From an uncultured Gammaproteobacteria bacterium (GTDB taxonomy: Bacteria; Pseudomonadota; Gammaproteobacteria; Francisellales; Francisellaceae): DNA of 64,000 nt. The stretch is taken from the NCBI GenBank assembly GCA_913060525.1, contig CAJXRW010000001.1, positions 289 through 64,288 on the forward strand. The letters run 5' to 3'. Shown one piece after another: positions 2,093-20,386 of the stretch; the stretch's first letter is position 1, and every line of letters starts with the position of its first letter. Both the position numbers and the translations under genes were made by a program. A model generated the notes under the pieces. That model searched no databases. It worked only from the letters and a program-made list of their open reading frames with translations, and had not been told where the DNA came from.

Positions 2093-3289
2093 TTAATTAA
2101 CGTTTCTTTTTTGGTCAGAAAAAAATATAACCACTAAGATGGTTAGTATTAAGAAAAGGTTAAAAAAACTAAATATTATTAATGACTCATCTACTATAAA
2201 TAAACAAAAAATTGTAAGAATTGAACAAGCACCAAATTGCATAGTTGTTAGTATACTGCTTGCTGTACCAATGTTCGATTTAATTTCAGATAAACTGTAA
2301 CTGCAAAAATTGGGAAATAAAAGACCAGTTGATAGTTCAATGATCGACATTGGAATAAGAAAAAATAAATATGAATCGTGTTTGATAATGGTTGCTAGCA
2401 TAAGAAGGGTGATACCTAAAGAAATAAAAATCACACCAAGACGATTTGAATCTCTGACAGTCGCACGCTTTAGTAAAATAAAATTTAAGATTGTTCCAAT
2501 TAGATATGCCGAACCGTAAATTAATTGGATATGACCTATTTCAATATAATTCAAGCTATACAGTTCTTTGTAAATAATTGGGCTGACGATAACATACGAC
2601 ATATATAACCCATAAATAATGCTACTGATATATGCGCCAACTCGAAAAGATTTTACTTTAAAAGTTTCTCGAAATATTTCAATTAAATTTGTATCTGAAG
2701 TTTTTTTATTTTCAATCGTCTCAGGTATGAAAAACAAATAAAGCAAAAATGCTAAAACACCAAGAATGATAATTGCGATAAAGATAAACTTGTAAGATGT
2801 TGCATAAGTAATGTATGCACCAATTACAGGTGAAAAAGTGGGAATACAGGCCCAAGCTAAGGTGGCGACAGTGAATGCCATTGCCAAGAATTTACCTTGA
2901 AATACATCAGTTAATAATGTCATTGCAATAACCGTAGCAAAAGCTGCACAAAATCCAGTTACGAAACGAAAAGCGATAAAAGTATAAATATCAGTCGAAA
3001 AAATAATTAATGTTGTGAACACGCAGTAAATAAATAACAGCACCAGTGTTATGATTTTTCTACCAAATTTATCAGATAAATAACCAACTATAATAGGAGA
3101 TAAAGCCATGCCGAATAAGTATGAGCTTAAAGTCATCTGTATGTAAGAAACATCTATACCCATATCTATAGCCATAAGATTAAAAACAGGCATATACATG
3201 TCGATTGCTGATTCTGATACAACTGCTAATAAACATATAAGTGCAAGAATCAGTGATTTATTAACGTTTTTTGATGAATTTCCCAGCAT
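2093..3289 (-). CDS. MFS transporter, DHA1 (Bcr/CflA-like) efflux protein
   Basis: 398 aa, almost entirely hydrophobic with about 12 helices. MFS motif-A-like loop GYLSDKFGRKIIT after TM2. Confidence 0.8.
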   Translation of the reverse strand: MLGNSSKNVNKSLILALICLLAVVSESAIDMYMPVFNLMAIDMGIDVSYIQMTLSSYLFGMALSPIIVGYLSDKFGRKIITLVLLFIYCVFTTLIIFSTDIYTFIAFRFVTGFCAAFATVIAMTLLTDVFQGKFLAMAFTVATLAWACIPTFSPVIGAYITYATSYKFIFIAIIILGVLAFLLYLFFIPETIENKKTSDTNLIEIFRETFKVKSFRVGAYISSIIYGLYMSYVIVSPIIYKELYSLNYIEIGHIQLIYGSAYLIGTILNFILLKRATVRDSNRLGVIFISLGITLLMLATIIKHDSYLFFLIPMSIIELSTGLLFPNFCSYSLSEIKSNIGTASSILTTMQFGACSILTIFCLFIVDESLIIFSFFNLFLILTILVVIFFSDQKRNVN

Positions 3290-3331
3290 AATTAACTACT
3301 TTTAGAGTAATACAGCATTAATTTTGTATAT

Positions 3332-4162
3332 ATGTCTAAAAATATAGCATTTACTGAAGAGGTTTACCCAACTTATTACCATAGTCTTACAGTTGACCAG
3401 GATTTATATTCAAAGAAAAATAAATACCACGAAATTAGGTTTTTCAGGAATGATGCTTATGGTGTTGTTTATACAAGTGATAATATTGTTCAGACCACTG
3501 AGAAAGATGAATTTGTATACCACGAAATGTCTGCACATGTTTCGATGCAAACTCATGGAAATGTAAAGACGGTATTGATCATCGGTGGTGGCGGTGGTGG
3601 GTGCTTGCGTGAAATATTAAAATACAACTCTGTTGAAAAAGTGGTTGTATGTGAAATTGATCAAGATGTTTATTATGGTTTTCAAACATACCTAGATTAT
3701 TCTGATGGTGCTTTTACTGATAAAAGAACACATTTGTTATTTTCTTGTGGATCTAGCTTTGTAGAGAATTGCACTGATAAATATGATCTAATTATTTGTG
3801 ATGCGCCCGATCCAGTAGGGTGTGGCGCAAGTTTATTTAGTGATGTATTTTATAAAAATTGCAGCAAGCTGCTCAATATTAATGGGATAATAACCGGTCA
3901 GATTGGTGTTCCATTCTTCCAGTTAGATAATGCTGTTCGAGCTAATAATTTTCTTTCTGCTATCTTTAGTAATGTTAAATTTTACAACGCAGCTGTACCT
4001 ATTTTCTGTGGTGGCACGATGCTTTTTTATATGGCATCAAACGAACAGGTTAGTTTGGCAGAGCACACATCAGAGCCACCAGGCTTAAAGTATTTTAATT
4101 CAGAAATATATAGGGCCACTTTTGCCTTGCCTAACTATATTAGAGCAGGGTTAAGTACATGA
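3332..4162 (+). CDS. spermidine synthase (SpeE)-like aminopropyltransferase homologue with atypical cofactor loop
   Basis: 276 aa, collinear by eye with E. coli SpeE. Matches: VQTTEKDEFVYHEM (cf. VQTTERDEFIYHEM), VLIIGGGGGGCLREI glycine loop, CEID, ICDAPDPVG (cf. ISDCTDPIG), FALPNY near the C-terminus. The loop reads GGGGGG instead of GGGDG(G/A). Confidence 0.8.
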   Translation: MSKNIAFTEEVYPTYYHSLTVDQDLYSKKNKYHEIRFFRNDAYGVVYTSDNIVQTTEKDEFVYHEMSAHVSMQTHGNVKTVLIIGGGGGGCLREILKYNSVEKVVVCEIDQDVYYGFQTYLDYSDGAFTDKRTHLLFSCGSSFVENCTDKYDLIICDAPDPVGCGASLFSDVFYKNCSKLLNINGIITGQIGVPFFQLDNAVRANNFLSAIFSNVKFYNAAVPIFCGGTMLFYMASNEQVSLAEHTSEPPGLKYFNSEIYRATFALPNYIRAGLST

Positions 4163-5244
4163 GAAAAATAACCACATTCTTACTTGTATTAGTTATATCT
4201 TCACAATTAATTTACGCTAAACAAGTGGTAAATATGATGGGTTGGACAGGTTATTTGACCTATACACCTGACCTGATTAAAAAGAAACAGGAGATAGAGG
4301 CTGGTTGTAATGTAGAGATAAGTTTCGATAATTATGATTCATATGATCAAATGATAAAAATGGTTGAAGGAAACCAAAAATATGACATTTCAATTGTATC
4401 AGATACTTTTTATGCATCAATCAGCAAGCAACTTACCTATAAAGGGAGTGACTTAGGATTAAAGGCCAGCCAAACTTACAATCCAGTCATTAAAGAACAT
4501 TACCTAAAAAAATACCCTGCTAATGTAGGTATTTTTCAGCTTGCATTATCTGGGTTTGTCTATAACCCAAAATATATTGAAGAAGGAAATATATCATTTC
4601 AGTCAATCATAGAAGTTTCAAAGGAAGAAGATGTTATTTTTTTAGATGATCCAATTGAGATAGCAAATATCATTCAAAATACCTATTATCCCGATGAATC
4701 ATTACCGATTGGTGATAAGCAGATAATTAGGAATATTAACCAGTTCGAAAGTGAAGTAATAGGGAAAAATATATATTTTTCTGATTTGCACACACCGCTT
4801 GATTTTTCAAATAAATTTGCCGCCCATTTTATTTGGTCTGGTGAAGGGTTGTTAATTATTAAGGAAGCTAAAAAAACAAAAGATGAAGATTTGAAATATA
4901 GCTCCACACCAGCGCTTGACTATATATCTATGGATGTGCTTAGTGTTTTAAATGACAAAAAAAGCACTGCTTGTGTTGCTCAAGCTTTGTTATCTAAACT
5001 CTATTTAGACGAAATGGCAAAAAGTTATTATTATTTCAGTCCATATATTGATAGTGTGATTAAAAACGAGGGTGAAGAGTATGAAAAATTACAACAAAAA
5101 TTCATCAAAGTTTTACATCATGCAAGTGAAGGAACATGGCTAGATAATATCGTTGCTACGAATGATGAGCTTGTCTATGGCAGATGGCAAGAAATTAGAG
5201 GCCAAATAAACTATCAAAGACCAACTGATGATAAAAAAGAATAA
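4159..5244 (+). CDS. periplasmic solute-binding protein, PotD/PotF-like (polyamine-binding family)
   Basis: 361 aa with a Sec signal peptide (..SSQLIYA/KQ). Pattern resembles PotD: VNMMGWTGYL (cf. LYFYNWTEYV), NYDSYDQMIKMVEG..YDISIVSDTFY (cf. TYESNETMYAKLK..YDLVVPSTYY), IWSGEG (cf. IWNGSA), MDVLSVLNDKKS (cf. MDSLAIPANAKN). Start overlaps the upstream stop (ATGA). Confidence 0.6.
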   Translation: MRKITTFLLVLVISSQLIYAKQVVNMMGWTGYLTYTPDLIKKKQEIEAGCNVEISFDNYDSYDQMIKMVEGNQKYDISIVSDTFYASISKQLTYKGSDLGLKASQTYNPVIKEHYLKKYPANVGIFQLALSGFVYNPKYIEEGNISFQSIIEVSKEEDVIFLDDPIEIANIIQNTYYPDESLPIGDKQIIRNINQFESEVIGKNIYFSDLHTPLDFSNKFAAHFIWSGEGLLIIKEAKKTKDEDLKYSSTPALDYISMDVLSVLNDKKSTACVAQALLSKLYLDEMAKSYYYFSPYIDSVIKNEGEEYEKLQQKFIKVLHHASEGTWLDNIVATNDELVYGRWQEIRGQINYQRPTDDKKE

Positions 5245-7225
5245 ATTCGTCAATAAAATATATTCGGAGAGTGGGTTAAAATGGGAGTTTTTTTTTACGA
5301 CATTCGTAACTTTCTTCATATATGCGATACTGATCTTTATTGTTCTGTATATTGAGTTTGATAAAAAAATACAAAAGGCGGCAATAAAATCTAGTCATGA
5401 AGAATTAGTCTCAGAAAATATTGCGTTTCAAAGTCAGTTAGCAACAAATATTTCTATGTTTATAAATGATCCGAGATTTCTTGATTATATTAAAGCTGGC
5501 TCAGCGACAAGGTTAAAATATTCCGGCGATGTTACCGAGGTATTCCTTAATTCCATTAAACCATATAAAAACGTAATAGCCGGAGTTGAAATATATCAAA
5601 ATCAAGAGACGGGTATACGTCAGTTTAGCCACCCAAAAAACAAACTTGTTAAAAAAATCCTGGGTACATCTGATTATTACTTCAGTATTCCTTTGTCATA
5701 TATGAATGATCAATATAACCCTAATAGCCAATATGTTGGCTACGTGAATATATATATTAATAAGAATCAATATATTGATTTTCTTGTCCAGCATTATGGT
5801 AGCTTGGAAAAATGTAATGCACCAGAAAGAGAAAAATATGATGAGTGTGTTTCTATTAATGGATTTGGTTCGAAATTTGGCATATTTGAAATAGAGTTAC
5901 ATAAACATTTTTATATACGGTCATTGGTTTCATATCCAGCTGAAACAGAATTGTTATATAAATATTTTTTAACAGGCCTTATTATTTTCATGGTTCTATT
6001 CTTGGTGTTTTATATCTGGCTTGCATCTATGTTGACGAAGCGAGTATTTACGCCATTAAGTAATCTAAAAAAGTTATTAACTAGTAAAGAAATATCAACG
6101 GCTGCGCTTAATAATGGATTAGAAGAAATTACTGTCGCGCATGCTAGCGTTGCTGCTTTAAAGGGAACACTTGAAGATCGTAAGAATGATTTTATTAATT
6201 TTCGAAAGGTTGTGCTAAAACAAGTTTATACAGATATACATGAAGTAAAAAATTATTTCACTTCAGTTATCAGTTTGTCAGAGAACATAACACAAGGAGA
6301 AGGATCTGAGTTGAGGTTAATTAAGTCTGCAGAAAGGAGGGTGTATGATTTACTCAAAAAATATCGCAACTTTAGCTTAAATGAAATAACGCAATTAAGG
6401 GAAAAACCTCAACTTACATCAATTAAACCATTATTTAGGCGTATTGATGATAAAATTCAAGAGTATGTAGTTGGTAGTAAGTTAGTTAATCTAAATTCTA
6501 AAAAAATAGAAATTAATAGTTATATATCCATTCCTGAAAACTACAATAACCATCTGCTTTTAGTATCAAGAAATAATGTTATTACTATGTTAGATATATT
6601 GTATAGTAATGCAGCACAAAGCGATTGTATTGGACTAAAATCCATTACGATCAGTGCTTACATAGATAACTATTGCTTTATATTAAAAGTCACTGATAAC
6701 GGTGTTGGTTTTGATTCGGAGCGCATAGATCAATATTTCGCAGGGCATACATCAAAAGAATTAGGATCTGGTATTGGGTTATCCAGGTGTCAAGAAATCA
6801 TTCAGCCAGCTTCAGGAGAAATAAAACTAGAATCAAATGAGCCAGGTGAGAATGTAACGGTATCAATCGAAATCCCAATTTTAAAGCCAACCTTTTTTGA
6901 TTTATCATTTTTCTTAATTAAAGCATTAAATTTTAATTCAGTAATTATATATACAGATCGAGAAGGATATTATTCTGGTAATGGTAATGGCATTATTTTG
7001 AAAAAAATATTTAATAAGCAAAAAAAATTCAAAAATTACTTATTTACCTATTATTTTGATCTGACAACGTTAGTAATTATTGATTCAGATAAGATTGATT
7101 TATCTTTATTGGAAGAAATCAAAGAGAATAAAAAAATCATTAATGAAAATGTTTATATATTATCGGATAATGAGGATATCCCTCGTGATTTTACAATATT
7201 TAGGAAACGGTACTTTGAAGGGTGA
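5228..7225 (+). CDS. membrane sensor histidine kinase with ~200-aa periplasmic domain and an extra C-terminal degenerate receiver-like region
   Basis: 665 aa with two TM helices flanking a periplasmic segment. Candidate H-box YTDIHEVKNYF, N-box MLDILYSNAAQS, G1 DNGVGFD, G2 GSGIGLSRC. About 110 aa follow the ATPase domain (VIIYTDREG...LVIIDSD). Confidence 0.75.
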   Translation: MIKKNKFVNKIYSESGLKWEFFFTTFVTFFIYAILIFIVLYIEFDKKIQKAAIKSSHEELVSENIAFQSQLATNISMFINDPRFLDYIKAGSATRLKYSGDVTEVFLNSIKPYKNVIAGVEIYQNQETGIRQFSHPKNKLVKKILGTSDYYFSIPLSYMNDQYNPNSQYVGYVNIYINKNQYIDFLVQHYGSLEKCNAPEREKYDECVSINGFGSKFGIFEIELHKHFYIRSLVSYPAETELLYKYFLTGLIIFMVLFLVFYIWLASMLTKRVFTPLSNLKKLLTSKEISTAALNNGLEEITVAHASVAALKGTLEDRKNDFINFRKVVLKQVYTDIHEVKNYFTSVISLSENITQGEGSELRLIKSAERRVYDLLKKYRNFSLNEITQLREKPQLTSIKPLFRRIDDKIQEYVVGSKLVNLNSKKIEINSYISIPENYNNHLLLVSRNNVITMLDILYSNAAQSDCIGLKSITISAYIDNYCFILKVTDNGVGFDSERIDQYFAGHTSKELGSGIGLSRCQEIIQPASGEIKLESNEPGENVTVSIEIPILKPTFFDLSFFLIKALNFNSVIIYTDREGYYSGNGNGIILKKIFNKQKKFKNYLFTYYFDLTTLVIIDSDKIDLSLLEEIKENKKIINENVYILSDNEDIPRDFTIFRKRYFEG

Positions 7226-8073
7226 TTATGAATTTATTTAATAGATCAAAAATTGTTATTCTTGATAATAATCTTGAATATGCAGAATCTTTAGTGGGTA
7301 AGCTAAAATTTGCTTTTCCAGATTGTAGCTTCAAAATATTTACTCGTGCGCGAGATTTATTTGATAGCGCGGCAACATATTTAAATATTTCTGATGTGGT
7401 TGATAGCGTAGAAGATATATATAACAATGTGATAGATGATTATGAACAATATGGTACTCTTCATCAGCAGCTTTTAGATTGTGAGCCAACACTTTTTGTA
7501 CTCGACTTTAATTTGGGTGAAGCAAGCTCACAAAATGGTATTGGTATATCAAGAATGCTTAAAAAGCATAAAGCGAATTCATATACTATTTTACTTACAA
7601 ATTTTGCTAATCATCAAACAGGTTGCGACGCTCAAAACCGAAAGCATATAGATGGATTTGTGGCAAAAGACACTATTCTTGATCAAACAGAGGTAATGCT
7701 GAGTCGAGATGATATATTTCAAGATATTGCTTTTCATATCCAGCACGCTAGGAATAATATTTCCTATGAAAGGATTAATGAATTCAATAACATCCAATCA
7801 AAAGCAAATGCATTAACCAAACGTTTTATTTCTGGATTAAGCATTAAGTCATATTACTATATTGATTCTATTGGATCTTGTTATGCTAAATCAGATGCAC
7901 AGAATTTCATATTTAAGGTACAAGAGCGACAAATATATGAAGAATTGAAAGAAAAATACAACACTGAATGTATTTTATTTAATGCCGAATATTCTGATAT
8001 TGGTAATCATTACTGTTGTGATGTAATTTATAGTAATAACGAGTTTGTTGCTGGTTTTAAGGATATCACATGA
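7222..8073 (+). CDS. receiver-domain (response-regulator-like) protein with unknown C-terminal domain
   Basis: 283 aa. CheY-like layout: KIVILDNN, candidate phospho-acceptor in LFVLDFNLGE, ILLTNFAN (Thr), GFVAKD (Lys). The C-terminal ~130 aa has no recognisable DNA-binding motif. GTG at 7222 overlaps the kinase stop; an alternative ATG lies at 7228. Confidence 0.55.
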   Translation: MIMNLFNRSKIVILDNNLEYAESLVGKLKFAFPDCSFKIFTRARDLFDSAATYLNISDVVDSVEDIYNNVIDDYEQYGTLHQQLLDCEPTLFVLDFNLGEASSQNGIGISRMLKKHKANSYTILLTNFANHQTGCDAQNRKHIDGFVAKDTILDQTEVMLSRDDIFQDIAFHIQHARNNISYERINEFNNIQSKANALTKRFISGLSIKSYYYIDSIGSCYAKSDAQNFIFKVQERQIYEELKEKYNTECILFNAEYSDIGNHYCCDVIYSNNEFVAGFKDIT

Positions 8074-8753
8074 GTCTTTATGAAAATAGTTGGAAGCTTT
8101 ATAAAGCAGCTACAGAAAATTTAGATTTTGATTACAAGTATTATTTAGATTTTAGTCGCCATTACAAAACATTAGACTTGTGTGCTGGTTTTGGGAGAGT
8201 CTCAAATTATCTAGTTGAACATGGTGTTGATGTTACTGCAGTTGAGCTTGAAGACGAATTTATACCTTTCCTAAAACTTAATAAAGATAAAATACAACAT
8301 GCTAATATCCTTGATCTTACAGGTGACAATCAGTTTGATCGAGTTATTTCGCCATACAATAGCTTTTGCTTGTTTACTGGTAGTTCAGTAGATAAATTTT
8401 TTGATATGCTTTCTAAAGTACTTAGACCAGATGGTTTAGCAAGCATCAGCTATTATCACCAAAAGCATTGGTATCACTTAGATGAAGGTGAATGGAATTT
8501 TATTTTAGATGGTGAGGAATTTACTTATACATTCGACTTTTCTAAGGATAAATCAGACTCGTTTTGGTTAGACCGGTTTAAGTTATTATCTTCAGGGGAA
8601 GTGATCGAGCACAAATATCCAATATCAATATACGATGACTTTTCAGAGTTAGACATATATTGTAATAAATATGGTCTAGTCATGACTGAAATCGTGAAGC
8701 ATAATTATACTTTAGAGCCAGGCTGGTACGATATTATAATTAGAAAGATATGA
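8070..8753 (+). CDS. class I SAM-dependent methyltransferase
   Basis: 227 aa. Motif I TLDLCAGFGRVSNYL followed by the acidic loop VTAVELEDE, and post-I/II elements (RVISPYNSF). ATGA overlap with the upstream gene. Confidence 0.7.
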   Translation: MSLYENSWKLYKAATENLDFDYKYYLDFSRHYKTLDLCAGFGRVSNYLVEHGVDVTAVELEDEFIPFLKLNKDKIQHANILDLTGDNQFDRVISPYNSFCLFTGSSVDKFFDMLSKVLRPDGLASISYYHQKHWYHLDEGEWNFILDGEEFTYTFDFSKDKSDSFWLDRFKLLSSGEVIEHKYPISIYDDFSELDIYCNKYGLVMTEIVKHNYTLEPGWYDIIIRKI

Positions 8754-9322
8754 AAACCGTAAAAGATAGAGTTATTTTCGCGCGCAAACAGACGCGTTTA
8801 TCACAAAAGAATTTTTGTAAAACAGATAATCGTAAAGCAAAAATTGGCGAGGCAACTCTAAAGGTGGTTGAGTTAGGTTCAGACCTATCAGATAACATCT
8901 GTAACAAGTTAGTTAATCGCTTAGAAGAGCTTGGATATAAAGTTAGTAAGGAGTGGATTCTTACTGGCGTTGGTGAACTGCCACGTAAAATATCAGATAT
9001 TTATGAACGAACATCAAATGAAGCAATTTCTGAACGATTAGAGTTTATTATCAATTTTGGACAGCTAACTGAAAAAGATTATGTACTTGATTACACACCA
9101 CCAACAGTACAGGCTTGGAGAGCAGGGAAAAGAGGGGGGATCAGTAAGGAATATGCTGATAAGCTCGCAAATATGCTCGCTGAGTCAAAGAGAATTTATT
9201 TTGACTCTAGTTGGTTATTGTATGGAATAGGTGCTGCACCGACAACTAATAAAGATATTTATCTGTCTAATTCTGAGTATGTTTGTGCATGTTCAGACTC
9301 TATTAATAATAAATTACAATAA
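8750..9322 (+). CDS. putative DNA-binding protein with XRE-type helix-turn-helix
   Basis: 190 aa. N-terminal VKDRVIFARKQTRLSQKNFC resembles an XRE HTH. A second HTH-like segment lies near aa 95-130. ATGA overlap with the methyltransferase; last gene of the operon. Confidence 0.5.
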   Translation: MKTVKDRVIFARKQTRLSQKNFCKTDNRKAKIGEATLKVVELGSDLSDNICNKLVNRLEELGYKVSKEWILTGVGELPRKISDIYERTSNEAISERLEFIINFGQLTEKDYVLDYTPPTVQAWRAGKRGGISKEYADKLANMLAESKRIYFDSSWLLYGIGAAPTTNKDIYLSNSEYVCACSDSINNKLQ

Positions 9323-9425
9323 AAATATAATTCATAATTAATTTATATAAACAAGTAACTGCAAACGATTTATGCAATTACAAATCATACTAAATAAAAT
9401 ATATATTTTTTATTTAAGATAATTA

Positions 9426-9453
9426 TTGACACATATAAATCATACTGTAAAAT
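9426..9453 (+). promoter_or_regulatory. candidate sigma70 promoter for the T4SS region (TTGACA - 16 nt - TAAAAT)
   Basis: TTGACA at 9426-9431 and TAAAAT at 9448-9453, in the 160-nt AT-rich gap before the first gene of the transfer cluster. Flanked by AAATCATAC repeats. Confidence 0.4.
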
Positions 9454-9484
9454 AAACATATCTTATAAACGGTATGATTTAAGA

Positions 9485-9691
9485 ATGGCTAAAGCATCAC
9501 TAAGAAAACCCGTTAATGTCGATGAAGACTTGCACTACACACTAAGAAAACTTGTTTTTGATTTAGATGGTGTGTCGATCGGGGATGAAGTCAGCAGGAG
9601 ATTAAGGCAATCATTTATCAAAGATGGAATTGATATATTGTCACCACCAAAAAGCAAAAAAAAAAGTAATTTAATAACGATTAATAGTTAG
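9485..9691 (+). CDS. small putative ribbon-helix-helix (CopG/Arc-like) DNA-binding protein
   Basis: 68 aa. N-terminal KPVNVDEDLHYTLRKLVFDLDGVSIGDEVSRRLRQ fits a beta-strand/helix/helix RHH pattern. First gene after the promoter-like region; basic tail. Confidence 0.4.
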   Translation: MAKASLRKPVNVDEDLHYTLRKLVFDLDGVSIGDEVSRRLRQSFIKDGIDILSPPKSKKKSNLITINS

Positions 9692-9728: not shown

Positions 9729-10001
9729 ATGCACATCTCTAGGGGTGAATTATGTCAACAGAAAGGTAAAAAAACCGTAATAAGATTAATGCTATTTATA
9801 ACATTTTTTTTCGGAATAGATAGTTTGGCGTTTTATGCGCCGGCTAATTTTTATCCCAATACTGCGATTAAATTTGGATTGATTTTAGAGGCTATTGAAA
9901 TTGATAAAAAATGTAATGAGTTGTCGCCAGAAGAGTGGACGGAATGTTTAAACCAAAACAATTACGACGAAATAATTAATAAATTACAAAAATTAAAATA
10001 A
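9729..10001 (+). CDS. hypothetical small protein with one hydrophobic segment
   Basis: 90 aa, with GGAG 8 nt upstream of the ATG. Hydrophobic stretch LMLFITFFFGIDSLAF. No family recognised. Confidence 0.45.
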   Translation: MHISRGELCQQKGKKTVIRLMLFITFFFGIDSLAFYAPANFYPNTAIKFGLILEAIEIDKKCNELSPEEWTECLNQNNYDEIINKLQKLK

Positions 10002-10049
10002 ATAAAAAATTAAAGTTTCATCAATAAATAAACAAACAAGGAGAATAAA

Positions 10050-10274
10050 ATGGGATCGAATCCATTACTAACAATCGTACAAAGCATTATTGATTATGTC
10101 CAGGGGCCGACAGGAAAAGCGATTGCGTTAATTGCCATCATTTCGTGCGGCTTAACCCTAATTTTTGGTGGCGACAGAACTAAGACAAAGATAGCTGCAG
10201 CTTCAATAATTGGTGGTGTGGTATTGGTCTTTTCTGCAACTTGGATCGGTGAGCAGTTCCTCGGAATAAGCTAA
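10050..10274 (+). CDS. virB2: T4SS pilin, VirB2/TrbC family
   Basis: 74 aa with a strong RBS (AAGGAG). Two hydrophobic helices are separated by the basic loop GGDRTKTK, which is the VirB2 layout. First gene of a virB-ordered cluster. Confidence 0.75.
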   Translation: MGSNPLLTIVQSIIDYVQGPTGKAIALIAIISCGLTLIFGGDRTKTKIAAASIIGGVVLVFSATWIGEQFLGIS

Positions 10275-10582
10275 TGACTAAGTCAGCAGAAGAAGCACCA
10301 CTCAACTATGCGCCAATTTATGGCGCATTAGTCAGACCAGCATTGTATATGGGTATATCGATTGAATATTATCCAATTGCTTTAATGGTTGTGTGCATTT
10401 TCTATATCGGTTTTAACCCGATATACGGCCTGATTAGCTGCTTGCCTGTTTATCTGTTTGGATATTTTGTATGCAAATATGATCCAGATGGGTTTAGAGT
10501 TTTAATTGCTTATGTTCAGGTTCTATTAGATGAGGGTCGAATCAAAAAAGTTGCTGGTGCAATCACCTACGATCCGTTTTAA
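10274..10582 (+). CDS. virB3: T4SS protein VirB3
   Basis: 102 aa. Start overlaps the virB2 stop (TAATG). LVRPALYMGI followed by two TM helices. Sits between B2 and B4. Confidence 0.75.
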   Translation: MTKSAEEAPLNYAPIYGALVRPALYMGISIEYYPIALMVVCIFYIGFNPIYGLISCLPVYLFGYFVCKYDPDGFRVLIAYVQVLLDEGRIKKVAGAITYDPF

Positions 10583-10628
10583 GTGATCGACAGTTTTATT
10601 AAGTTTATATAAAAATAGAGGGTAGGGT

Positions 10629-13184
10629 ATGTTAGATAAAAATATTATGTTTGTGCGAAAGGCGCAAAAGAAGATCTCACAACGCTTACCAAAAATGCAT
10701 TTTGTCGCACCAAATGTAATTCGTACTAGCGCAAATGTTCTCTTTCAAGTTATTAAAGTGAATGGTGTACACATCAGCACATCATCAACTGACAATATCA
10801 ATGAAAAAGATAACGAATGGCATAGTATTGTCACTTCTTTAGATGATGAATTTCCAATTTGGGCCACAATGATCAGGCGAAAAGTTAGCTCTGATTTTAA
10901 TGTCAGTAACTATAGTGAATTTACACATGAATTTTCAGAAAAATACCGTAATAAATATAAGAATGCACAGCTGTATAGAAATGAGTATTACTTAACTGTT
11001 TACTATACCGGTATGACTGGTCTGGTGAAAAATATCAGCAGTATTTTTTCGAAAAAAAATGACGCAATATTTCAAACTAAGATATCTGAAGCAGTCGGGC
11101 GATTAACTTCAAAAGTAGAAGAAATCGTTACCAGGCTCGGCTCGCAGAAAAAAGATGAAGCTTTTTCAGAAAATTCATCGATTCGTGATGAGGTAACATC
11201 GGATCATTTCAATGCGCGTGTTTTAGATCAAAGAGAATGTGAGACATCAGAGATCATGTCGTTTCTAGGTACATTTGTAAATGGCTTGGAATCGCTCAGC
11301 TATAAATATCCAACTGAGCCAATGTTCGGCTATCGTGATACTCAAATACCTGAGCCTGGGTTTTCAAAATTTCCATACGGCAATATCGGCGAGTTTTTGG
11401 GACAGAATGAGCCGGCTTTTGGTGATAAGCGATATTTTGCTTTTAAGCATACCGATGGTTCGAAAAAAATCGGTAATATCTTGTCAATCAAAAAATATGG
11501 ATCTGGCACAACACCAATTACTTTTCATCAGTTGATGGCTTTAGATTGCGAGTTTATGTACACCGTTTCATTTGCGCCAATGGAAACAAAAAAAGCGGAA
11601 CAAGAAACACGTAAAAAACTAGCAAAAATGAAAAATGCTAAAGACAAGGCCAAGTCACAACAAGCAGCGATTGAAATGCTTGAAGATGATATCGCATCAG
11701 AGCGTGTGTTGCTCGGTAGCTCGCATTGCTCGCTAATGGTGTTAGCAGACAACAAAGAAGAACTAAATAGTCATACTAACCAGGTCATTAAGCTTTATGG
11801 CCAGAATGATTTTCGCGCGTTTCCCGAAGAAATTAACCATATTTCTACATTTTGGGCGCAATTTCCTGGCAACACCAAATACATTAAACGTGAACGTCTA
11901 TTAACATCAGATGTATTTTGCCATTTTTTTCCACTGCATAATTTCCCGACTGGCCACACACATCAGACGCACTTAGGCGAAGGATTGTGTTTAGTTGATA
12001 CTCCGTCCAAAACACCCATGTTCTTCAATTATCATGAACCAGAAAAGGGCGCATCTAAAAACGATAAATGTCCAGGATCAGGTGTCTTGGTAGGTGGTAA
12101 TAAATCAGGTAAAACTACGTTGCTCTTGGCGATGGATGCTTTAGCTGAAAAATATAATCAAAAGACTTACTTTTTTGATCGAGATGGCGGTGGCGCAATA
12201 TACATGTGGGCCACAGGTAATAAGTATTATGAATTTGATCAAGATAACATTAGAAATATTAATCTTAATGTCTTTTCATTACCAGATACGCGCGTCAATC
12301 GTGCTTTCATCGCGAATTGGTTATGCGGTATTTCGAGGGATGAAGACGAAAGTAGTGTTCCTTCTGATGTTAAAGAATTATTCACTGAAGTAGTGAATTA
12401 TGCTTATACGCTTGATTTAGAACAACGTTCATTATCCAATGTATTAAATTCGTATGTTGGGCCAGATTTTAAACGCTGGTCAAACTTGCGTTTATGGCTG
12501 AGAGGTGATGACTATCGAGATGATGGCGCATTCGCTGAATATTTTGATAATGATATTGATGAGTTAGATTTCGATTCGCAAATGAAAATTGGCTTTGACA
12601 TGACACACGTTCTTGGTAAAGGCGATATGCGTTTAGGATCAGCATTATTATCATATAATTTCCATCGAATTTTGACGCAAAAAAGAGAGCCAGGGCAACC
12701 AATTTGTATCATCCTTGATGAGGGTTGGTTTATGTTGCGAGACCCTTGGATTGCTAACATGCTTGAAGAATTAATCCCAACAATCCGTAAAGAAAACATT
12801 TATATCATTGTGGCCACTCAGTCACCTGAGACCGTCTTAGCATCACCTGTTGCAGATCAGTTTTTAGCAAATATTGCATTTTCTATTTTCTTCGCTAATT
12901 CAAAAGCAGATTCCAAAGTCTATGAAAAATATAATATTGATGTTGCTGAGTTTCAAACAATTAAAACTACGCCTAGGGCAAAACGCCACTTTATTTTTAA
13001 GCAAGGGCATGAATCAGCTGTTTGTAAATTGGATCTTTCAGGCTTTAACCGTGAGTTGGCGGTGCTTTCAACTAATACGGATTCGAAAGAAGTTGCTAGG
13101 CGAATCCGCAAAAAGCACGGTCTTAATCCAAAACCAGAATTATGGTTAGAATCATTCTATGAAGAATTAGGGGTATCGAAATGA
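10629..13184 (+). CDS. virB4: T4SS ATPase VirB4
   Basis: 851 aa. Walker A GGNKSGKTTLL and Walker B CIILDEGW. Size and synteny fit. Confidence 0.93.
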   Translation: MLDKNIMFVRKAQKKISQRLPKMHFVAPNVIRTSANVLFQVIKVNGVHISTSSTDNINEKDNEWHSIVTSLDDEFPIWATMIRRKVSSDFNVSNYSEFTHEFSEKYRNKYKNAQLYRNEYYLTVYYTGMTGLVKNISSIFSKKNDAIFQTKISEAVGRLTSKVEEIVTRLGSQKKDEAFSENSSIRDEVTSDHFNARVLDQRECETSEIMSFLGTFVNGLESLSYKYPTEPMFGYRDTQIPEPGFSKFPYGNIGEFLGQNEPAFGDKRYFAFKHTDGSKKIGNILSIKKYGSGTTPITFHQLMALDCEFMYTVSFAPMETKKAEQETRKKLAKMKNAKDKAKSQQAAIEMLEDDIASERVLLGSSHCSLMVLADNKEELNSHTNQVIKLYGQNDFRAFPEEINHISTFWAQFPGNTKYIKRERLLTSDVFCHFFPLHNFPTGHTHQTHLGEGLCLVDTPSKTPMFFNYHEPEKGASKNDKCPGSGVLVGGNKSGKTTLLLAMDALAEKYNQKTYFFDRDGGGAIYMWATGNKYYEFDQDNIRNINLNVFSLPDTRVNRAFIANWLCGISRDEDESSVPSDVKELFTEVVNYAYTLDLEQRSLSNVLNSYVGPDFKRWSNLRLWLRGDDYRDDGAFAEYFDNDIDELDFDSQMKIGFDMTHVLGKGDMRLGSALLSYNFHRILTQKREPGQPICIILDEGWFMLRDPWIANMLEELIPTIRKENIYIIVATQSPETVLASPVADQFLANIAFSIFFANSKADSKVYEKYNIDVAEFQTIKTTPRAKRHFIFKQGHESAVCKLDLSGFNRELAVLSTNTDSKEVARRIRKKHGLNPKPELWLESFYEELGVSK

Positions 13185-13912
13185 AAAAGAAATTAATTGC
13201 TTTGGCTTTAGTTGGAGCTATATCTATTTCAAATACTTCTCAGGCGCAATGGGCGGTATCAGATGGTGGTGTCACTGCAAACGGCATCATCCAAATCACT
13301 TATGCAATTCAACAAATGATGCAGTTGAAAGAACAATATGAAGAAATTATGCAACAGGTGCAACTTGCACAAAATCAAGTTGAAAAAGCCCAAACTCAGA
13401 TCGAAAATATCACCGGCAGCTATGGTATGGGTCTACTAGGGAATTCTGCTTCTGATCTGCTGGATCGCCAATGGATGGGCAACGATTGGGAGCAAACGCT
13501 AAAAGGTATATCAGGTGGCAATAACCAGCGTTATCAAGAACTACGCAATGCGTATATTGAGCAACACCAAACAGTTGATGCTAGCGAGTTTCGACGTATG
13601 CGTAGTGAAGAAGCCACCAGCGTCTATAAAGAGAAAGCCGAGACAAATCAGGCCGTCGCTGCTGTCGCTGAACAGCAATATGCCAAAGTAAATGACTATA
13701 TAGATAAGTTACACGAGCTTGGTAATTCGATCGAAAGTCCTACCAATGAGAACACCAAATCAGCCACTGATTTAAATACCAGAATGGTTCAGGAATTGGG
13801 TTACATCATGTCGGAAATGCTTCGGATGCAATCAACAGCCATGAGGCTGCAAACGGCTACCCAAGCACAAAATATTCAAGCACAAAGTTCACAAGCTAAA
13901 TTTTTTAATTAA
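13181..13912 (+). CDS. virB5: T4SS minor pilus subunit VirB5-like
   Basis: 243 aa with a signal peptide and predicted cleavage NTSQA/QWAV. Gln/Glu-rich helical protein. ATGA overlap with virB4; synteny fits. Confidence 0.65.
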   Translation: MKKKLIALALVGAISISNTSQAQWAVSDGGVTANGIIQITYAIQQMMQLKEQYEEIMQQVQLAQNQVEKAQTQIENITGSYGMGLLGNSASDLLDRQWMGNDWEQTLKGISGGNNQRYQELRNAYIEQHQTVDASEFRRMRSEEATSVYKEKAETNQAVAAVAEQQYAKVNDYIDKLHELGNSIESPTNENTKSATDLNTRMVQELGYIMSEMLRMQSTAMRLQTATQAQNIQAQSSQAKFFN

Positions 13913-13923
13913 GGAGTAATTGA

Positions 13924-14076
13924 ATGAAAAAAATAAAATGGTTAGTGATGGTCATATTATCAGGTCTATTTTTTACGCTAGCAGGGTGTGCACATCAAGA
14001 TCTGAAAACACCTTGTCCAGACTTTGGGGAAGACTGTAATCAAGTGCCAATAAATTCATGGAATTATCAAAAATAA
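13924..14076 (+). CDS. small lipoprotein, VirB7-like (not in the supplied ORF track)
   Basis: My translation gives MKKIKWLVMVILSGLFFTLAGCAHQDLKTPCPDFGEDCNQVPINSWNYQK (50 aa). Lipobox LAGC, and AAGGAG 7 nt upstream of the ATG. Size and position in the virB cluster fit VirB7. Confidence 0.55.
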   Translation: MKKIKWLVMVILSGLFFTLAGCAHQDLKTPCPDFGEDCNQVPINSWNYQK

Positions 14077-14092
14077 AAATTAAGGCGAGATA

Positions 14093-14686
14093 ATGAAATT
14101 ACATCGACTATTAGGGTTAACCTTATTTTCAAGCTGTATCGCACTTACTGGATGTGGTAATGAGCAAAATAAAGGGCAGCATGAACAAAAAGTAACTGAA
14201 GCAAAAGCATCTGACCCGATCACTAAAGGATCAAAAGTTAATATACAGCATATTGATCAGAAGCCTAACGAAGCAGTTGTTTCTAAGTTAACACAAATGA
14301 AATACAAACAAATTAATGGATTTCTTGTCGCTGCTCATGCGTATAAGAATATGGGCGTTAATTATTATGAATGTTCAAAAATTGAAGCTGAAAAAGACAC
14401 CATGAATGAGTGGGATAAAATGATTGCTTCCCAAAAAACTTCGACTTGTCAGCCGCTGATGGAAGCCGGTATCGCATATCTGAAATCACAAGGTTATAAC
14501 GTTACGCTCGCAGATATATCCGATTCACGGGTAGTGACACATTTTAGGGATGTCACAAACCAGGCTTATCACAACAGAATGGCAGCCAAAAAAGCTTATT
14601 ATGACCAAATTATTAGAGCAAAAACACCAGAAGAAAAACAAAGAATACAAGCAGAATACGACCAAGTTATTAACGAAAATAGTTAA
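14093..14686 (+). CDS. lipoprotein of unknown function (candidate entry-exclusion protein by position)
   Basis: 197 aa with lipobox LTGC after a signal peptide. Lies between virB5 and virB6, where pKM101-type clusters carry eex. No sequence family recognised. Confidence 0.5.
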   Translation: MKLHRLLGLTLFSSCIALTGCGNEQNKGQHEQKVTEAKASDPITKGSKVNIQHIDQKPNEAVVSKLTQMKYKQINGFLVAAHAYKNMGVNYYECSKIEAEKDTMNEWDKMIASQKTSTCQPLMEAGIAYLKSQGYNVTLADISDSRVVTHFRDVTNQAYHNRMAAKKAYYDQIIRAKTPEEKQRIQAEYDQVINENS

Positions 14687-14694
14687 GAGATGTT

Positions 14695-15753
14695 ATGTCT
14701 AGTCCAGTAGAATTTATCGCAGATTTTTTCTCAAATTTTGAGGCAATTCTTGATACCTTTGTTTATAACGGCTATCAGGCATTAGCCGATTTGCTTATGC
14801 CGGTTGTTGGCTCAGTTGTCTTATTGGCAGTGATCTTCTTAGGTTATCGTACCATGTATGGCTTTGGCAAAATGACAGTTAAAGAATACATTAAATTTGT
14901 GGTATTAGTCGGTGTTATTTATACATTTTTCTTCCAGTGGGGAAATTTCTCGTACTATGTAGTTAATTTTTTCTATTACTTAATTGATCTAGCTGCATCA
15001 GCCTTGATGCAAGTTTCACCTTCACAAATCTCTGGGGCATCAACATTAAATGAAGCGATGCAAAATAGTTTGAGTTTGATTGACTATGTTGGGAGAGGGA
15101 TCTTTGCTGAAGCAGGATGGAGTAATCTGGCTTATTTTTTCTACGGTGCAATCGTTTATTTAACTGGCGTAATAATGATTGCCGCAATTATGCTCGAAAT
15201 TGTATTGGCTAAAATGATTATGGCCATTACTTTTGTTTTGATCCCATTGATTGCGCCGTGTTTATTGTTTGAAAAAACAAAACAAATTTTTGATCGTTGG
15301 TTGGGAACATTGGTCGCTTTTTCTTTACTAATTATTATGATTTCTGCAGTAATGGGGTTATTTTTAACGCTCGTCTATAACTTATTACCTGTTATAAATA
15401 TTTCTCAAGATATCCCTGCTGATTTTTATGACGGCTTGGCGCAAAGAATTACACCGTTATTTATCGTCATGATCATCTGTATTTTTCTCACATTCAAAAT
15501 TCACCAAGTAGCGATGAATATTGGCGGTGGCATTTCGCCTGGATCAGCCAGCGGTATGGCTGCGGCTGGTGCTGGTGCAGTGGTTGGCTATATGGGTATG
15601 TCTAAAGCAATGACAGCAATGGGCTTGAGAGGTGTTGGTCGTGTTGCTGGTGGCACAAGAAGTTTAGCTGGGATGAATGGGCAGGCCGCTTCAGGTGTTG
15701 GCTCACAAGCAGGTCGAGCAGCACAAAGCCAAGTAAATAAAATTCGTTCTTAA
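14695..15753 (+). CDS. virB6: T4SS inner-membrane protein VirB6/TrbL family
   Basis: 352 aa with at least 6 TM helices and a Gly/Ala-rich C-terminal tail. Synteny fits. Confidence 0.75.
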   Translation: MSSPVEFIADFFSNFEAILDTFVYNGYQALADLLMPVVGSVVLLAVIFLGYRTMYGFGKMTVKEYIKFVVLVGVIYTFFFQWGNFSYYVVNFFYYLIDLAASALMQVSPSQISGASTLNEAMQNSLSLIDYVGRGIFAEAGWSNLAYFFYGAIVYLTGVIMIAAIMLEIVLAKMIMAITFVLIPLIAPCLLFEKTKQIFDRWLGTLVAFSLLIIMISAVMGLFLTLVYNLLPVINISQDIPADFYDGLAQRITPLFIVMIICIFLTFKIHQVAMNIGGGISPGSASGMAAAGAGAVVGYMGMSKAMTAMGLRGVGRVAGGTRSLAGMNGQAASGVGSQAGRAAQSQVNKIRS

Positions 15754-15764
15754 TAGGAGTAAAC

Positions 15765-16553
15765 ATGTTCAAGAAAAATAACAAACAAGGTGATCAAGTA
15801 AAGCAAGCTAAAGTTGCTAAGACTAAACCTGAAAAGGCAAAACCATTCAAAACCAGGTTAGAAGAATATTACAAGTTCTCGAATGCCTGGGGTGCAGATA
15901 TTCTTGATTCAATGGTGACACAAAAAAATCGTTATAAGCGTTTATTTATCGGCACACTTGGATTTGCTTTCTTGCTGCTATTAACAATTATGATGATGAT
16001 GCCCTTGCGCGAAATTGTACCAGTTGGAATTTACACAGATAAGAACGGTAACACTTATGTAAACACACATGATTTCCAGCACAAATTTACGCATACGAAG
16101 CAAGAAATCAGAGGCGAAATATTTCGCTATATCAAAATGTTTGAGGGTTATGAAGCTGGTAGCTTCAGAATGTCTACAAATTATGTACAGGCAATGTCAG
16201 CACCTAATATTTTTGCCAAATATGCTAAACAAATTGGCGAACAAAATAGCTATGTTGATCACCTTGGAAAAGATGGCTACAGAAAAGTTACGGTTGAATC
16301 AATTAATTTCCTAAATTCAGAGAAAGCGCGTGGCGTAATCGACCCAAAAAATACAGCCATTGTAACCTATACCGTAACAACCGGTATGTATGGCCAGAAG
16401 CCAAATGACCCATTGAAATTCCGCGCATTAATCAATTGGGAATATGAAGGTTTACCCAAATCGAGAGAAGAACAATTCTTAAACTACGACGGATTTACCG
16501 TAACCGGTTTAGATGTCACACCAGTAAACTATGATGGAGCTAAGCAAAAATGA
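15765..16553 (+). CDS. virB8: T4SS protein VirB8
   Basis: 262 aa. Basic N-terminus, a single TM (LFIGTLGFAFLLLLTIMMMM), then a ~170-aa periplasmic domain. Synteny fits. Confidence 0.75.
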   Translation: MFKKNNKQGDQVKQAKVAKTKPEKAKPFKTRLEEYYKFSNAWGADILDSMVTQKNRYKRLFIGTLGFAFLLLLTIMMMMPLREIVPVGIYTDKNGNTYVNTHDFQHKFTHTKQEIRGEIFRYIKMFEGYEAGSFRMSTNYVQAMSAPNIFAKYAKQIGEQNSYVDHLGKDGYRKVTVESINFLNSEKARGVIDPKNTAIVTYTVTTGMYGQKPNDPLKFRALINWEYEGLPKSREEQFLNYDGFTVTGLDVTPVNYDGAKQK

Positions 16554-17356
16554 AAAAATCAATCAAATTAAGTGCAATTTCAACGTTAATGGCAATATCA
16601 ATATTTGCTGTTGCAGAGAATAAACCCATTGAATTGGCCACAACGCCTTACATTTCCAATGTGGCTTATGAACAAAGTAATGTTGTACCCATCACAGGTA
16701 CACCAATGACAACCACTAATATTATCTTTGGTAAGGATGAAACGGTTGTGGGTGCATCGACAGGAGATTTGACATCTTGGGAAGTGTCGCAAGCAGATAT
16801 TCCGAATATTTTATTTGTGAAGCCAACTCGCGTGGGATCGAACACAAACTTAACGGTTTATACAAATAAACACCGTTATTTCTTTCATATTATGTCGAAA
16901 GATCCAAAGGACAGCACACCTACTTACGCCGTCATTTTTGAGTATCCACAAGAAGAAATGGCCAAGATCAATGCCAAGCAAAAATGGTTGAAAGGGCAGA
17001 ATGATGCAAATCTAAGCAAGCCGATGCAACCCAAAGATTATAACTATGATTATACCTTTAATGGCAGTCGTTCAATCATGCCGGTTAATGTTTTCGATGA
17101 TGGTACATTCACTTATTTTACCTTTCTGCCTAATACACCACAGCCGGCAATATTTGCCGTAGATAATGCCGAGGGCAATGAAACAGTCGTTAATATCCGT
17201 CGTTTATCTAATTTTACTACCCCAATGGGTGAGAGGGGTAATGTCGTAAAAGTTTTACGTGTTGCGCCCCAATTCACTTTAAGATTGGGAAAAAACAAAG
17301 TGGCCAGTATCTTTAACAAGCCATCAATCGCCAAGATTGAAGCAACTGACTCGTAG
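16550..17356 (+). CDS. virB9: T4SS outer-membrane core protein VirB9
   Basis: 268 aa with a signal peptide and beta-rich sequence containing YNYDYTFNG. ATGA overlap with virB8. Confidence 0.75.
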   Translation: MKKSIKLSAISTLMAISIFAVAENKPIELATTPYISNVAYEQSNVVPITGTPMTTTNIIFGKDETVVGASTGDLTSWEVSQADIPNILFVKPTRVGSNTNLTVYTNKHRYFFHIMSKDPKDSTPTYAVIFEYPQEEMAKINAKQKWLKGQNDANLSKPMQPKDYNYDYTFNGSRSIMPVNVFDDGTFTYFTFLPNTPQPAIFAVDNAEGNETVVNIRRLSNFTTPMGERGNVVKVLRVAPQFTLRLGKNKVASIFNKPSIAKIEATDS

Positions 17357-17365
17357 GAGAAGGCA

Positions 17366-18553: not shown

Positions 18554-18555
18554 CG

Positions 18556-20062: not shown

Positions 20063-20072
20063 GGACAATTAA

Positions 20073-20366: not shown

Positions 20367-20386
20367 ATTAATTCAGGACGGCAACA

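Follow-up and report, generated by a model that had tools for sequence, protein, structure and literature searches.

Candidate amine-sensing two-component module beside the type IV secretion genes of a plasmid from an uncultured gammaproteobacterium

Gene content and organization of the locus

The DNA analyzed here, referred to as the window, is a stretch of 64,000 nucleotides (nt) from an uncultured gammaproteobacterium of the Francisellaceae (contig CAJXRW010000001.1, positions 289 to 64,288), and it makes up nearly the whole of a metagenomic contig of approximately 65.8 kb that is circular in appearance. In L002 (related loci are also referred to by L numbers), the last window genes are followed by genes for ParA, a 310-amino-acid (aa) protein, and DnaB. 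The subject of this analysis is a module of seven genes on this plasmid, six of them in one operon upstream of the genes for a type IV secretion system (T4SS) and the seventh divergent from that operon. The features of the module, with the evidence for each assignment, are as follows:

2093-3289, minus strand: major facilitator superfamily (MFS) transporter, Bcr/CflA-like (DHA1-type efflux), divergent from the module operon; Pfam MFS_1
3290-3331: divergent intergenic gap of 42 nt between the MFS gene and the SpeE-like gene
3332-4162, plus strand: homolog of the SpeE-fold aminopropyltransferases; NCBIfam PRK00811
4159-5244, plus strand: PotD/PotF-family periplasmic solute-binding protein; deep profile against the Protein Data Bank (PDB)
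5228-7225, plus strand: sensor histidine kinase; HATPase_c
7228-8073, plus strand: response regulator, probably of the LqsR type; family profile and Foldseek, both to PDB entry 6sy9
8070-8753, plus strand: class I S-adenosylmethionine (SAM)-dependent methyltransferase, "MT227" family; Methyltransf_25/Methyltransf_11
8750-9322, plus strand: tandem CI/XRE-type helix-turn-helix (HTH) protein; phrog_4 and family hidden Markov model (HMM)

The six plus-strand open reading frames (ORFs) and the divergent MFS gene had been proposed in a preliminary description made from the sequence alone, and a recheck of the ORFs confirmed them. The junction sequences agreed with its ATGA overlaps at 4159, 8070, and 8750, its 17-nt overlap at 5228, and its 42-nt divergent gap. 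The tight coupling of the receiver gene to the kinase gene also stood, as its ATG lies 2 nt past the kinase stop codon, but the start at GTG 7222 with a GTGA overlap gave way to a likelier ATG at 7228. This ATG is used by the gene callers and by all homologs (the protein begins MN), and a GAAGG Shine-Dalgarno-like motif lies approximately 8 nt upstream of it. The gap between the MFS and SpeE-like genes is 42 nt in L004 and 44 nt in L006, and at 42 nt it is too short to leave room for two separate promoters.

All seven of the functions first guessed for these genes held, with refinements from Pfam, NCBIfam, deeper profiles, and Foldseek. The PotD-like, receiver, and HTH assignments had no Pfam matches or sub-threshold ones, and were confirmed by deeper analysis only. 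The analyses below indicate that these genes probably form a binding-protein-dependent two-component module for an amine-type ligand, in which the regulator is LqsR-like and its HTH partner is of the CI type.

A family of PotD-like binding proteins encoded with sensor kinases

The binding protein carries a Sec signal peptide (aa 6-24) and lacks a lipobox. On its own it had no match in Pfam or NCBIfam and no direct match in the PDB, and PDB searches with single sequences or four-sequence alignments of the binding protein, the HTH protein, and the regulator gave sub-significant matches only. A word-indexed search of 5.8 billion proteins found only four clusters for the binding protein; with an exhaustive profile search, the family grew to 157 cluster representatives (clusters at 50% identity). 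A profile of 68 family sequences, called A7, to whose members the window protein ties at E ~1e-51, had 22 matches in the PDB at E ≤ 0.034, every one of them a polyamine-binding protein. The best was PotD of S. pneumoniae (4eqb, 7.8e-17, query positions 25-327), and others included 4gl0 (5.7e-16), 2v84, 7xjm, E. coli PotD (1pot, 2.3e-6), PotF, and SpuD/E. The initial assignment of the protein as PotD-like was right, since the A7 profile matched solved polyamine-binding proteins only. Pfam SBP_bac_8 was touched by only two of the 68 family members (E = 0.11).

Six of the nine PotD ligand contacts that could be mapped are retained family-wide (W34, Y37, S83, D168, E171, and W229). T35 of PotD is also retained in the window protein, and E36 and Y85 are substituted by G and T, respectively. 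The C-lobe contacts W255, D257, Y293, and Q327 were unmappable by hmmalign, though D259, which is nearly invariant, seems to be the equivalent of D257. The PotD reference sequence used for this mapping was checked at all 13 positions. The only positions fully invariant in the 68 family members are C50, C272, and W343 (window numbering), and the two cysteines suggest a family-specific disulfide that has no counterpart in PotD. An AlphaFold2 (AF2) model of the binding protein from a four-sequence alignment had a pLDDT of 44 and was not used.

The kinase gene overlaps the end of the binding-protein gene. A scan for transmembrane (TM) segments placed TM1 at aa 19-48 and TM2 at aa 240-274, with a periplasmic domain of approximately 190 aa. 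The H-box (H338 in DIHEVKNY), N461, the G1 motif DNGVGFD, and the G2 motif GSGIGL are all invariant. A catalytic domain at aa 440-555 is followed by a C-terminal extension of approximately 110 aa; identification of this extension as a receiver or pseudoreceiver was not supported (hhalign probability 9%, no HMM matches to hybrid kinases). Judged by their motifs, the kinase and the regulator described below both carry the residues for catalytic competence. In PLSDB there was no DNA match to the locus and no homolog of the binding protein, and a search with the kinase returned generic catalytic domains only.

Genome contexts of the wider family were drawn from a protein collection and 33 GTDB loci and scored with HMMs from in-house alignments, which gave approximately 41 loci after deduplication. 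The taxa surveyed included Legionellales, Coxiellaceae, Thiotrichales, a "Francisella" metagenome-assembled genome, Shewanella surugensis, Reinekea, Fluviispira/Spirobacillus, Bdellovibrionia, and others. The kinase gene was directly 3' of the binding-protein gene, usually overlapping it, in 32 of the 39 informative loci, and it lay within 3 kb in 36 of the 39. The start/stop overlap between the two genes persists from 83% down to approximately 25% identity, at phyla-level distances. Variations on the pair were also seen: Spirobacillus (L014, 3939-8981) encodes five tandem binding-protein paralogs and then a single kinase, and L012 (9077-10654) has a fusion of a SnoaL-like domain with a second binding-protein domain.

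Homology to the PotD family could also mean that the binding protein is an orphan uptake component for a chromosomal PotABC-type transporter, adjacent to the kinase by coincidence, and adjacent genes for solute-binding proteins and kinases that are not linked in function have been documented (PMC11113362). However, the overlap with the kinase gene is conserved over the full range of identities just given, and no gene table examined placed ABC permease or ATPase genes next to the gene for the binding protein. The family is also distinct, with its own invariant cysteine pair and the E36 to G substitution, and five tandem paralogs ahead of one kinase, as in Spirobacillus, are not what a transport remnant would lead one to expect. 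This explanation is therefore considered very improbable.

The response regulator and the HTH protein

The regulator consists of a receiver domain and a C-terminal domain without DNA binding, which is the architecture of LqsR, and its receiver residues D13, D93, T124, and K147 are invariant. The window protein is shorter than LqsR (281 aa versus approximately 340) and very divergent. The profile of the regulator family (40 members) matched PDB entry 6sy9, LqsR of L. pneumophila, over its full length at 7e-90, and hhalign comparison of the regulator to Legionella-type regulators gave E values of 1.4e-5 and 7.8e-5. A profile from which window-type sequences had been left out matched the homolog in L007 at 2.6e-9, collinear over both domains (positions 11-245 of 324). 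The AF2 model of the regulator had a pLDDT of 75, and in a Foldseek search 6sy9 was its top match and the only full-length one (1.1e-9). The LqsR-like regulator family is centered on Legionella and Tatlockia. These comparisons argue that the window receiver is an LqsR-type response regulator, with moderate support for the window protein itself.

The HTH protein is made up of two repeats, at aa ~5-78 and ~95-165, with the motif W(I/L)LxGxGxxP at the end of each, and has no S24 peptidase domain. Its matches to PHROG families were weak (phrog_4, "transcriptional repressor," 2.5e-4; phrog_8, 0.018). The HMM of the HTH protein matched proteins from L030, L032, and L047 at 2e-9 to 4e-6, which by Pfam combine HTH_19/HTH_3 with Peptidase_S24, and these matches indicate that the window protein is of the tandem CI/XRE type without S24. 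There was no detectable homology between the window HTH protein and that of L012, and HTH homologs were found in other loci; hhalign of the two HTH families gave a weak result (E = 0.0047, probability 7%).

An LqsR-like regulator was encoded within 10 kb in 23 of the 41 loci, and in approximately 17 of these 23 a CI/XRE-type HTH regulator was adjacent to it or near it. The receiver and HTH assignments of the preliminary description hold, but it had missed the LqsR-like nature of the receiver, the CI-like nature of the HTH protein, and the precedent of VirA/ChvE/VirG.

Conservation of the module on three plasmid lineages

The seven genes of the module, along with a gene for a 68-aa protein that follows them, were shared by three plasmid lineages with two classes of T4SS. 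The replicon backbones of these lineages are different: DnaB/ParA in the window, TrfA/ParA in L004/L005, and Rep3/ParB in L006. The T4SS in L004/L005 is VirB-type, as in the window, and protein identities are 83-99%. The module proteins of L006 are 39-77% identical, and downstream of them are genes for DUF2859, DtrJ-like, RAQPRD, and DUF2895 proteins, which we take to be transfer genes of the ICE/G type (ICE, integrative and conjugative element). The upstream flank of the module varies (DnaB, a 362-aa gene, or Rep3) and the downstream flank is constant, consisting of the 68-aa gene and transfer genes. Conservation of the genes as a block, on which the preliminary description had staked its reading, was therefore found on three plasmid backbones.

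A smaller version was found in L007, which is chromosomal-looking and has only a core of five genes (binding protein, kinase, regulator, methyltransferase, and HTH protein) at 29-41% identity. A divergent gene for a class-III aminotransferase is located upstream, and SpeE, MFS, and T4SS genes are absent from this locus. The SpeE-like gene and the Bcr-type MFS gene were confined to the three plasmid lineages among the approximately 41 loci surveyed. A 60-aa ORF 3' of the L007 module was considered as a homolog of the 68-aa protein and found unconvincing; its HMM match was due to its own presence in the training alignment.

A variant SpeE-like enzyme, a methyltransferase, and an exporter

The SpeE-like protein passed the cutoff of NCBIfam PRK00811 (271.4 bits, cutoff 260), was slightly under that of TIGR00417 (243.6 bits, cutoff 249.6), and matched E. 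coli SpeE (3o4f) at 2.4e-59. It retains the catalytic and diamine-side Asp residues (D157 and D160). In the cofactor motif at aa 85-90, GGGDGG is replaced by GGGGGG, so that the Asp that selects decarboxylated SAM (dcSAM) is lost (G88). GGGDG is present in all three of the solved enzymes that were aligned, from E. coli (3o4f), T. maritima (1inl), and P. falciparum (2hte), and G88 is invariant across the three plasmid lineages, down to 70% identity. The Asp of GGGDG forms a salt bridge with the amino group of dcSAM and is thought to repel the carboxylate of SAM (PMC3725402). Substitution D103I abolished spermidine synthase activity and brought a weak SAM-dependent putrescine N-methyltransferase activity, and D101I in the T. 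maritima enzyme lowered kcat approximately 2000-fold (PMC3725402). Because the dcSAM-selecting Asp is missing, the SpeE-like protein is probably not a plain spermidine synthase, and the GGGGGG variant suggests a changed co-substrate or reaction. The concern that this gene is a plain housekeeping copy, raised when the locus was first described, is not borne out, as the Asp is missing in all three lineages.

The methyltransferase matched Methyltransf_25 and Methyltransf_11, both at ~4e-9, and its homolog in the chromosomal L007 is 40% identical. In 10 of the 41 loci, an MT227-family homolog lies next to the gene for the binding protein or that for the kinase. No homology was detectable between the window methyltransferase and that of L012, and family members were found in other loci. 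The MFS transporter matched Pfam MFS_1 at 2.7e-40 and NCBIfam TIGR00710 at 193 bits, slightly below the cutoff of 201, with identities of 97% in L004 and 70% in L006.

Other loci encode alternative small-molecule enzymes: an ABM monooxygenase, GNAT, isochorismatase, cyclase, SnoaL fusion, or aminotransferase. These variable neighbors look more like modifying or degrading enzymes than like one dedicated synthase, and many loci carry the core module without any synthase. Such contexts would fit a module whose ligand is not self-made but is an amine or polyamine supplied from outside, by a eukaryotic host or the surrounding community. The SpeE-like enzyme, the methyltransferase, and the MFS transporter would then modify or remove the imported or ambient compound, or tune sensitivity to it, instead of making a signal, with transfer as a possible output but not a necessary one. 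Most of the relatives belong to the Legionellales, the Coxiellaceae, and predatory or intracellular lineages, and NspS-MbaA is a precedent for the sensing of environmental polyamines (PMC8050422). On the other hand, the plasmid versions have gained an exporter-type MFS and an enzyme of biosynthetic fold, kept at 70% identity across lineages, and a small-molecule enzyme is nearly always beside the sensor, as in pairs of autoinducer synthase and receptor. An exogenous cue of this kind was judged improbable.

The preliminary description had gone further and proposed a self-contained autocrine circuit. The part of this proposal that stands is a coherent signaling module; autocrine signaling does not hold beyond the plasmid version, as the core is also chromosomal without SpeE, MFS, and T4SS genes. 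Even for the plasmid version, an autocrine circuit is unlikely, though the gene content would allow it: the variant SpeE-like enzyme and the methyltransferase would make a non-canonical SAM-derived amine, and the MFS transporter would export it.

The region between the module and the T4SS operon

The HTH gene is separated from the 68-aa gene by a spacer of 162 nt, and the T4SS genes follow. The features of this region are:

9426-9453: promoter-like site TTGACA-16-TAAAAT, 11 of 12 matches, the best in the region
9436-9448 and 9469-9481: 13-nt inverted repeat around the promoter-like site (TAAATCATACTGT and ACGGTATGATTTA)
9485-9691, plus strand: 68-aa protein, the first gene past the promoter, ribbon-helix-helix-like by eye only
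9729-26467, plus strand: conjugation region, with genes for a 90-aa membrane protein (at 9729), virB genes, virD4, a UvrD-like helicase, and glutaminyl cyclase

The inverted repeat that brackets the promoter-like site is a candidate operator of the T4SS operon. A third, direct copy of the 13-nt repeat is found at 9380-9392, 55 nt upstream. A 9-mer from the repeat occurs seven times versus 1.8 expected, with three of the seven in this spacer. The 13-mer was not enriched plasmid-wide and was absent from the gap between the MFS and SpeE-like genes, and so gave no sign of a regulon. No terminator was predicted between 9322 and 9485, which means that read-through from the module operon may feed the T4SS genes.

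Just 5' of the promoter-like site is a near-perfect palindrome of 42 nt (9383-9424), AT-only, with 21-nt arms that are 81% complementary and no loop. It could be a bent-DNA or integration host factor-type site, or a weak terminator. Exact copies of AAATCATAC were found at 56948-56956 and 57068-57076, inverted and 120 nt apart, in a 302-aa ORF (56335-57243) by a DNA methylase gene, and a further copy was found at 37525, in the gap 5' of an integrase gene.

The 68-aa protein is 99% identical in L004 and 55% identical in L006, the plasmid with the G-type T4SS, and is not conserved in L007. It had no Pfam or PHROG match, and its reading as a ribbon-helix-helix protein has no profile behind it. The T4SS promoter thus has a small gene of its own and a local inverted repeat, so the HTH protein is not the sole candidate regulator. 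The T4SS genes begin at 10050 and encode VirB2, B3, B4, B5, B6, B8, B9, B10, B11, and VirD4. VirB4 (10629-13184) is at most 29% identical to any protein from the 72,556 plasmids in PLSDB, which indicates a transfer system lineage without a sequenced cultured representative in that database. The glutaminyl cyclase gene (Glu_cyclase_2, 24525-25352) is translationally coupled to that for the UvrD-like helicase at the tail of the transfer region and is an odd companion for a T4SS.

Association of the module with transfer systems

The T4SS genes beside the module are VirB-type in the window and L004, G-type in L006, F-type in L018, and Trb-type in L033 and L049. These represent four independent juxtapositions, all at the promoter-proximal end of the operon. 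Approximately 15% of the loci were T4SS-adjacent, compared with a few per cent for a random gene by a rough estimate that is not a formal null. The HTH gene and trbB are transcribed divergently, with 288 nt between them, in L033 (confirmed by Pfam) and L049. In L018 the T4SS comes after LvrA/B-sized genes and a CsrA gene, and L037, which is alike up to the end of its contig, is probably also F-type. The genes in question encode proteins of approximately 290 aa and 124-155 aa and CsrA, and are located between the pair of binding protein and hybrid kinase and the F-type tra genes (L018, 12315-14768; L037, 11574-14104). This gene set resembles the lvrABC/CsrA regulatory cassette of Legionella ICEs.

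The link to conjugation that had been proposed from the window alone therefore gained comparative support from VirB-, Trb-, G-, and F-type systems; the role of the HTH protein as single regulator did not, given the small gene and inverted repeat at the T4SS promoter itself. The preferred explanation, at about even odds, is that the module senses an extracytoplasmic polyamine-like amine and, most likely, governs expression of the conjugation operon downstream of it. Control of the adjacent transfer operon, taken as a claim of its own, falls a little short of an even chance.

Several results weigh against this interpretation. The chance probability that all four juxtapositions would be at the operon head is only ~0.06, and approximately 34 of the 41 family loci are not T4SS-adjacent. 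With most family members away from any T4SS, the core module would be a sensor of general use and not one dedicated to switching conjugation. The inverted repeat is kept in L004 and absent from L006, and could belong to the 68-aa protein. The sequence tie of the window regulator itself to LqsR is weak (E = 0.0046 with the leave-out profile), and its AF2 model was built from an alignment rich in LqsR and has a TM-score of 0.39 to 6sy9. The scans of window proteins found no SpeD or other polyamine genes on the plasmid. PotF-family proteins can also bind γ-aminobutyric acid and 5-aminovalerate, and in P. aeruginosa the products of adjacent solute-binding protein and kinase genes were shown not to interact (PMC11113362).

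Part of this evidence would also fit an accessory unit for amine sensing and homeostasis carried as cargo, which regulates its own operon and the divergent MFS pump, so as to export or detoxify an amine that the SpeE-like enzyme and the methyltransferase make. Its proximity to the T4SS would then only mean that cargo usually sits between the replication and transfer regions. The core module is chromosomal without T4SS in L007, L010, L012, L016, L017, and others; the T4SS operon possesses its own promoter, local candidate operator, and small first gene; and a divergent pump and operon with a 42-nt gap are typical of locally autoregulated pumps. However, a cargo slot does not account for an upstream flank that differs in the three plasmids while the 68-aa gene and transfer genes are always downstream, nor for distant relatives that independently head Trb- and F-type operons. 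The position of the HTH gene in L033, divergent from trbB across 288 nt, is moreover a classic layout of regulator and target. A cargo sensor was considered somewhat unlikely.

Proposed mechanism

If the module does control transfer, the following sequence of events can be proposed. The secreted PotD-like protein, which has PotD homology, acidic and aromatic contacts that are in part retained, and no transporter partner, would bind an amine-type ligand in the periplasm and dock on the periplasmic domain of the kinase encoded with it, modulating autophosphorylation at H338. Phosphate would then be transferred to D93 of the LqsR-type regulator. As this regulator has no DNA-binding domain, it may work via the CI/XRE-type HTH protein encoded next to it, a speculative step for which the recurrent gene pairing is the observation in hand. 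It is also speculative that the HTH protein, the 68-aa protein, or both act at the inverted-repeat candidate operator over the 9426-9453 promoter that would drive virB2-virB11. In the plasmid version, the acquired MFS transporter and the SpeE-fold enzyme without the dcSAM-selecting Asp, with the methyltransferase, might make and export a SAM-derived amine and so close an autocrine loop, which is likewise speculative.

The fullest form of this model is a complete quorum-sensing-like transfer circuit with a new signal chemistry, in which the SpeE-fold enzyme uses SAM directly, the signal is perceived by the PotD-like receptor and kinase, and the LqsR-type regulator acts on a CI-like repressor that gates the T4SS. 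This combination is distinctly unlikely. Speculatively, its signal would be a methylated or aminocarboxypropylated amine exported by the MFS transporter.

Other genes on the plasmid

Two further segments of the plasmid were of note. On the minus strand at 42799-49077 is a gene for a 2092-aa fusion of MobA/MobL relaxase, TraI-like helicase, DUF7146, and Toprim primase. The G+C content of this segment is 0.40-0.42, versus approximately 0.31-0.35 for most of the plasmid outside the T4SS block, and it is flanked by Fic and TraD-like genes. At 33423-41731, a tripartite efflux set (14-TM-type MFS transporter, HlyD-like adaptor, and outer-membrane factor) stands ahead of genes for a tyrosine recombinase and a Tn3-family transposase, and the block is likely transposon-borne cargo.

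Comparison with known systems

NspS-MbaA of Vibrio cholerae, which is also found in Sinorhizobium, is similar to the module in that a transporter-less PotD-like protein is encoded beside its membrane receptor, which has a periplasmic domain. NspS-MbaA senses norspermidine, spermidine, or spermine (PMC8050422). The partner of NspS is a GGDEF-EAL cyclic di-GMP enzyme with biofilm formation as its output, whereas here the partners are a histidine kinase and an LqsR-type regulator, and Pfam found no GGDEF or EAL domain at the locus. In addition, NspS is recognized by Pfam SBP_bac_8, while the family of the window binding protein is not.

LuxP-LuxQ, TorT-TorS, and ChvE-VirA share with the module a periplasmic binding protein that is the co-receptor of a two-TM histidine kinase. 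On the Ti plasmid of Agrobacterium, virA is a neighbor of the virB operon, whose T4SS is switched on by the ChvE-VirA system. However, LuxP, TorT, and ChvE are of the sugar, autoinducer-2, or trimethylamine N-oxide type and not of the PotD type, and the regulators of these systems bind DNA (VirG and TorR) or act via a phosphorelay (LuxO). In the table of binding proteins in signaling from a 2021 review, no polyamine-type binding protein is paired with a histidine kinase.

The Lqs system of Legionella (LqsA-LqsR-LqsS/LqsT) has the same response regulator architecture. Its kinases are of the six-TM CqsS/LqsS type, in contrast to the PotD-like protein and two-TM kinase found here, and Pfam identified no aminotransferase-class synthase at the window locus that could be a pyridoxal phosphate-dependent synthase of the CqsA/LqsA type. 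If the plasmid version were autocrine, it would also resemble TraI/TraR of the Ti plasmid and the Rap-Phr systems of pLS20 and ICEBs1, in which the element encodes synthesis, export, and sensing of the signal beside its transfer genes. The signal in those systems is an acyl-homoserine lactone or a peptide, whereas here it would be an amine, and there were no LuxI/LuxR or Rap/Phr homologs among the window proteins scanned with Pfam.

Repressors of the CI/SetR/ImmR type, known from ICEs and prophages, hold the transfer genes of ICEs off, and their architecture, HTH with Peptidase_S24, is encoded beside the LqsR-like protein in most of the relatives; the window protein differs in having two HTH repeats and no S24. 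In the literature searched, no description was found of such a repressor paired with a response regulator. The preliminary description had stated that no conjugation-control system of this composition is known, and literature searches on LqsR, polyamines, PotD with histidine kinases, and ICEs likewise found none.

Implications

If the interpretation is right, this would be the first polyamine-type binding protein to act through a histidine kinase, and a sizeable family of binding proteins (157 clusters at 50% identity) would have been invisible to curated domain libraries. In plants, spermidine synthase has changed into an N-methyltransferase, and the SpeE variant without the dcSAM-selecting Asp would be a candidate for the bacterial counterpart of that change or for a novel aminocarboxypropyl transferase. 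LqsR lacks a DNA-binding domain and is not known to have a direct target. CI-like HTH/S24 repressors, which recur beside the LqsR-type regulators, provide a concrete partner candidate for them, and if the quorum-sensing-like circuit were true it would reveal the long-unknown output mechanism of these regulators. Control of gene transfer is poorly understood in the Legionellales-like bacteria, the Coxiellaceae, and related bacteria. If the module controls transfer as proposed, environmental or self-made amines would cue conjugation in these and related aquatic and intracellular bacteria, through four classes of T4SS.

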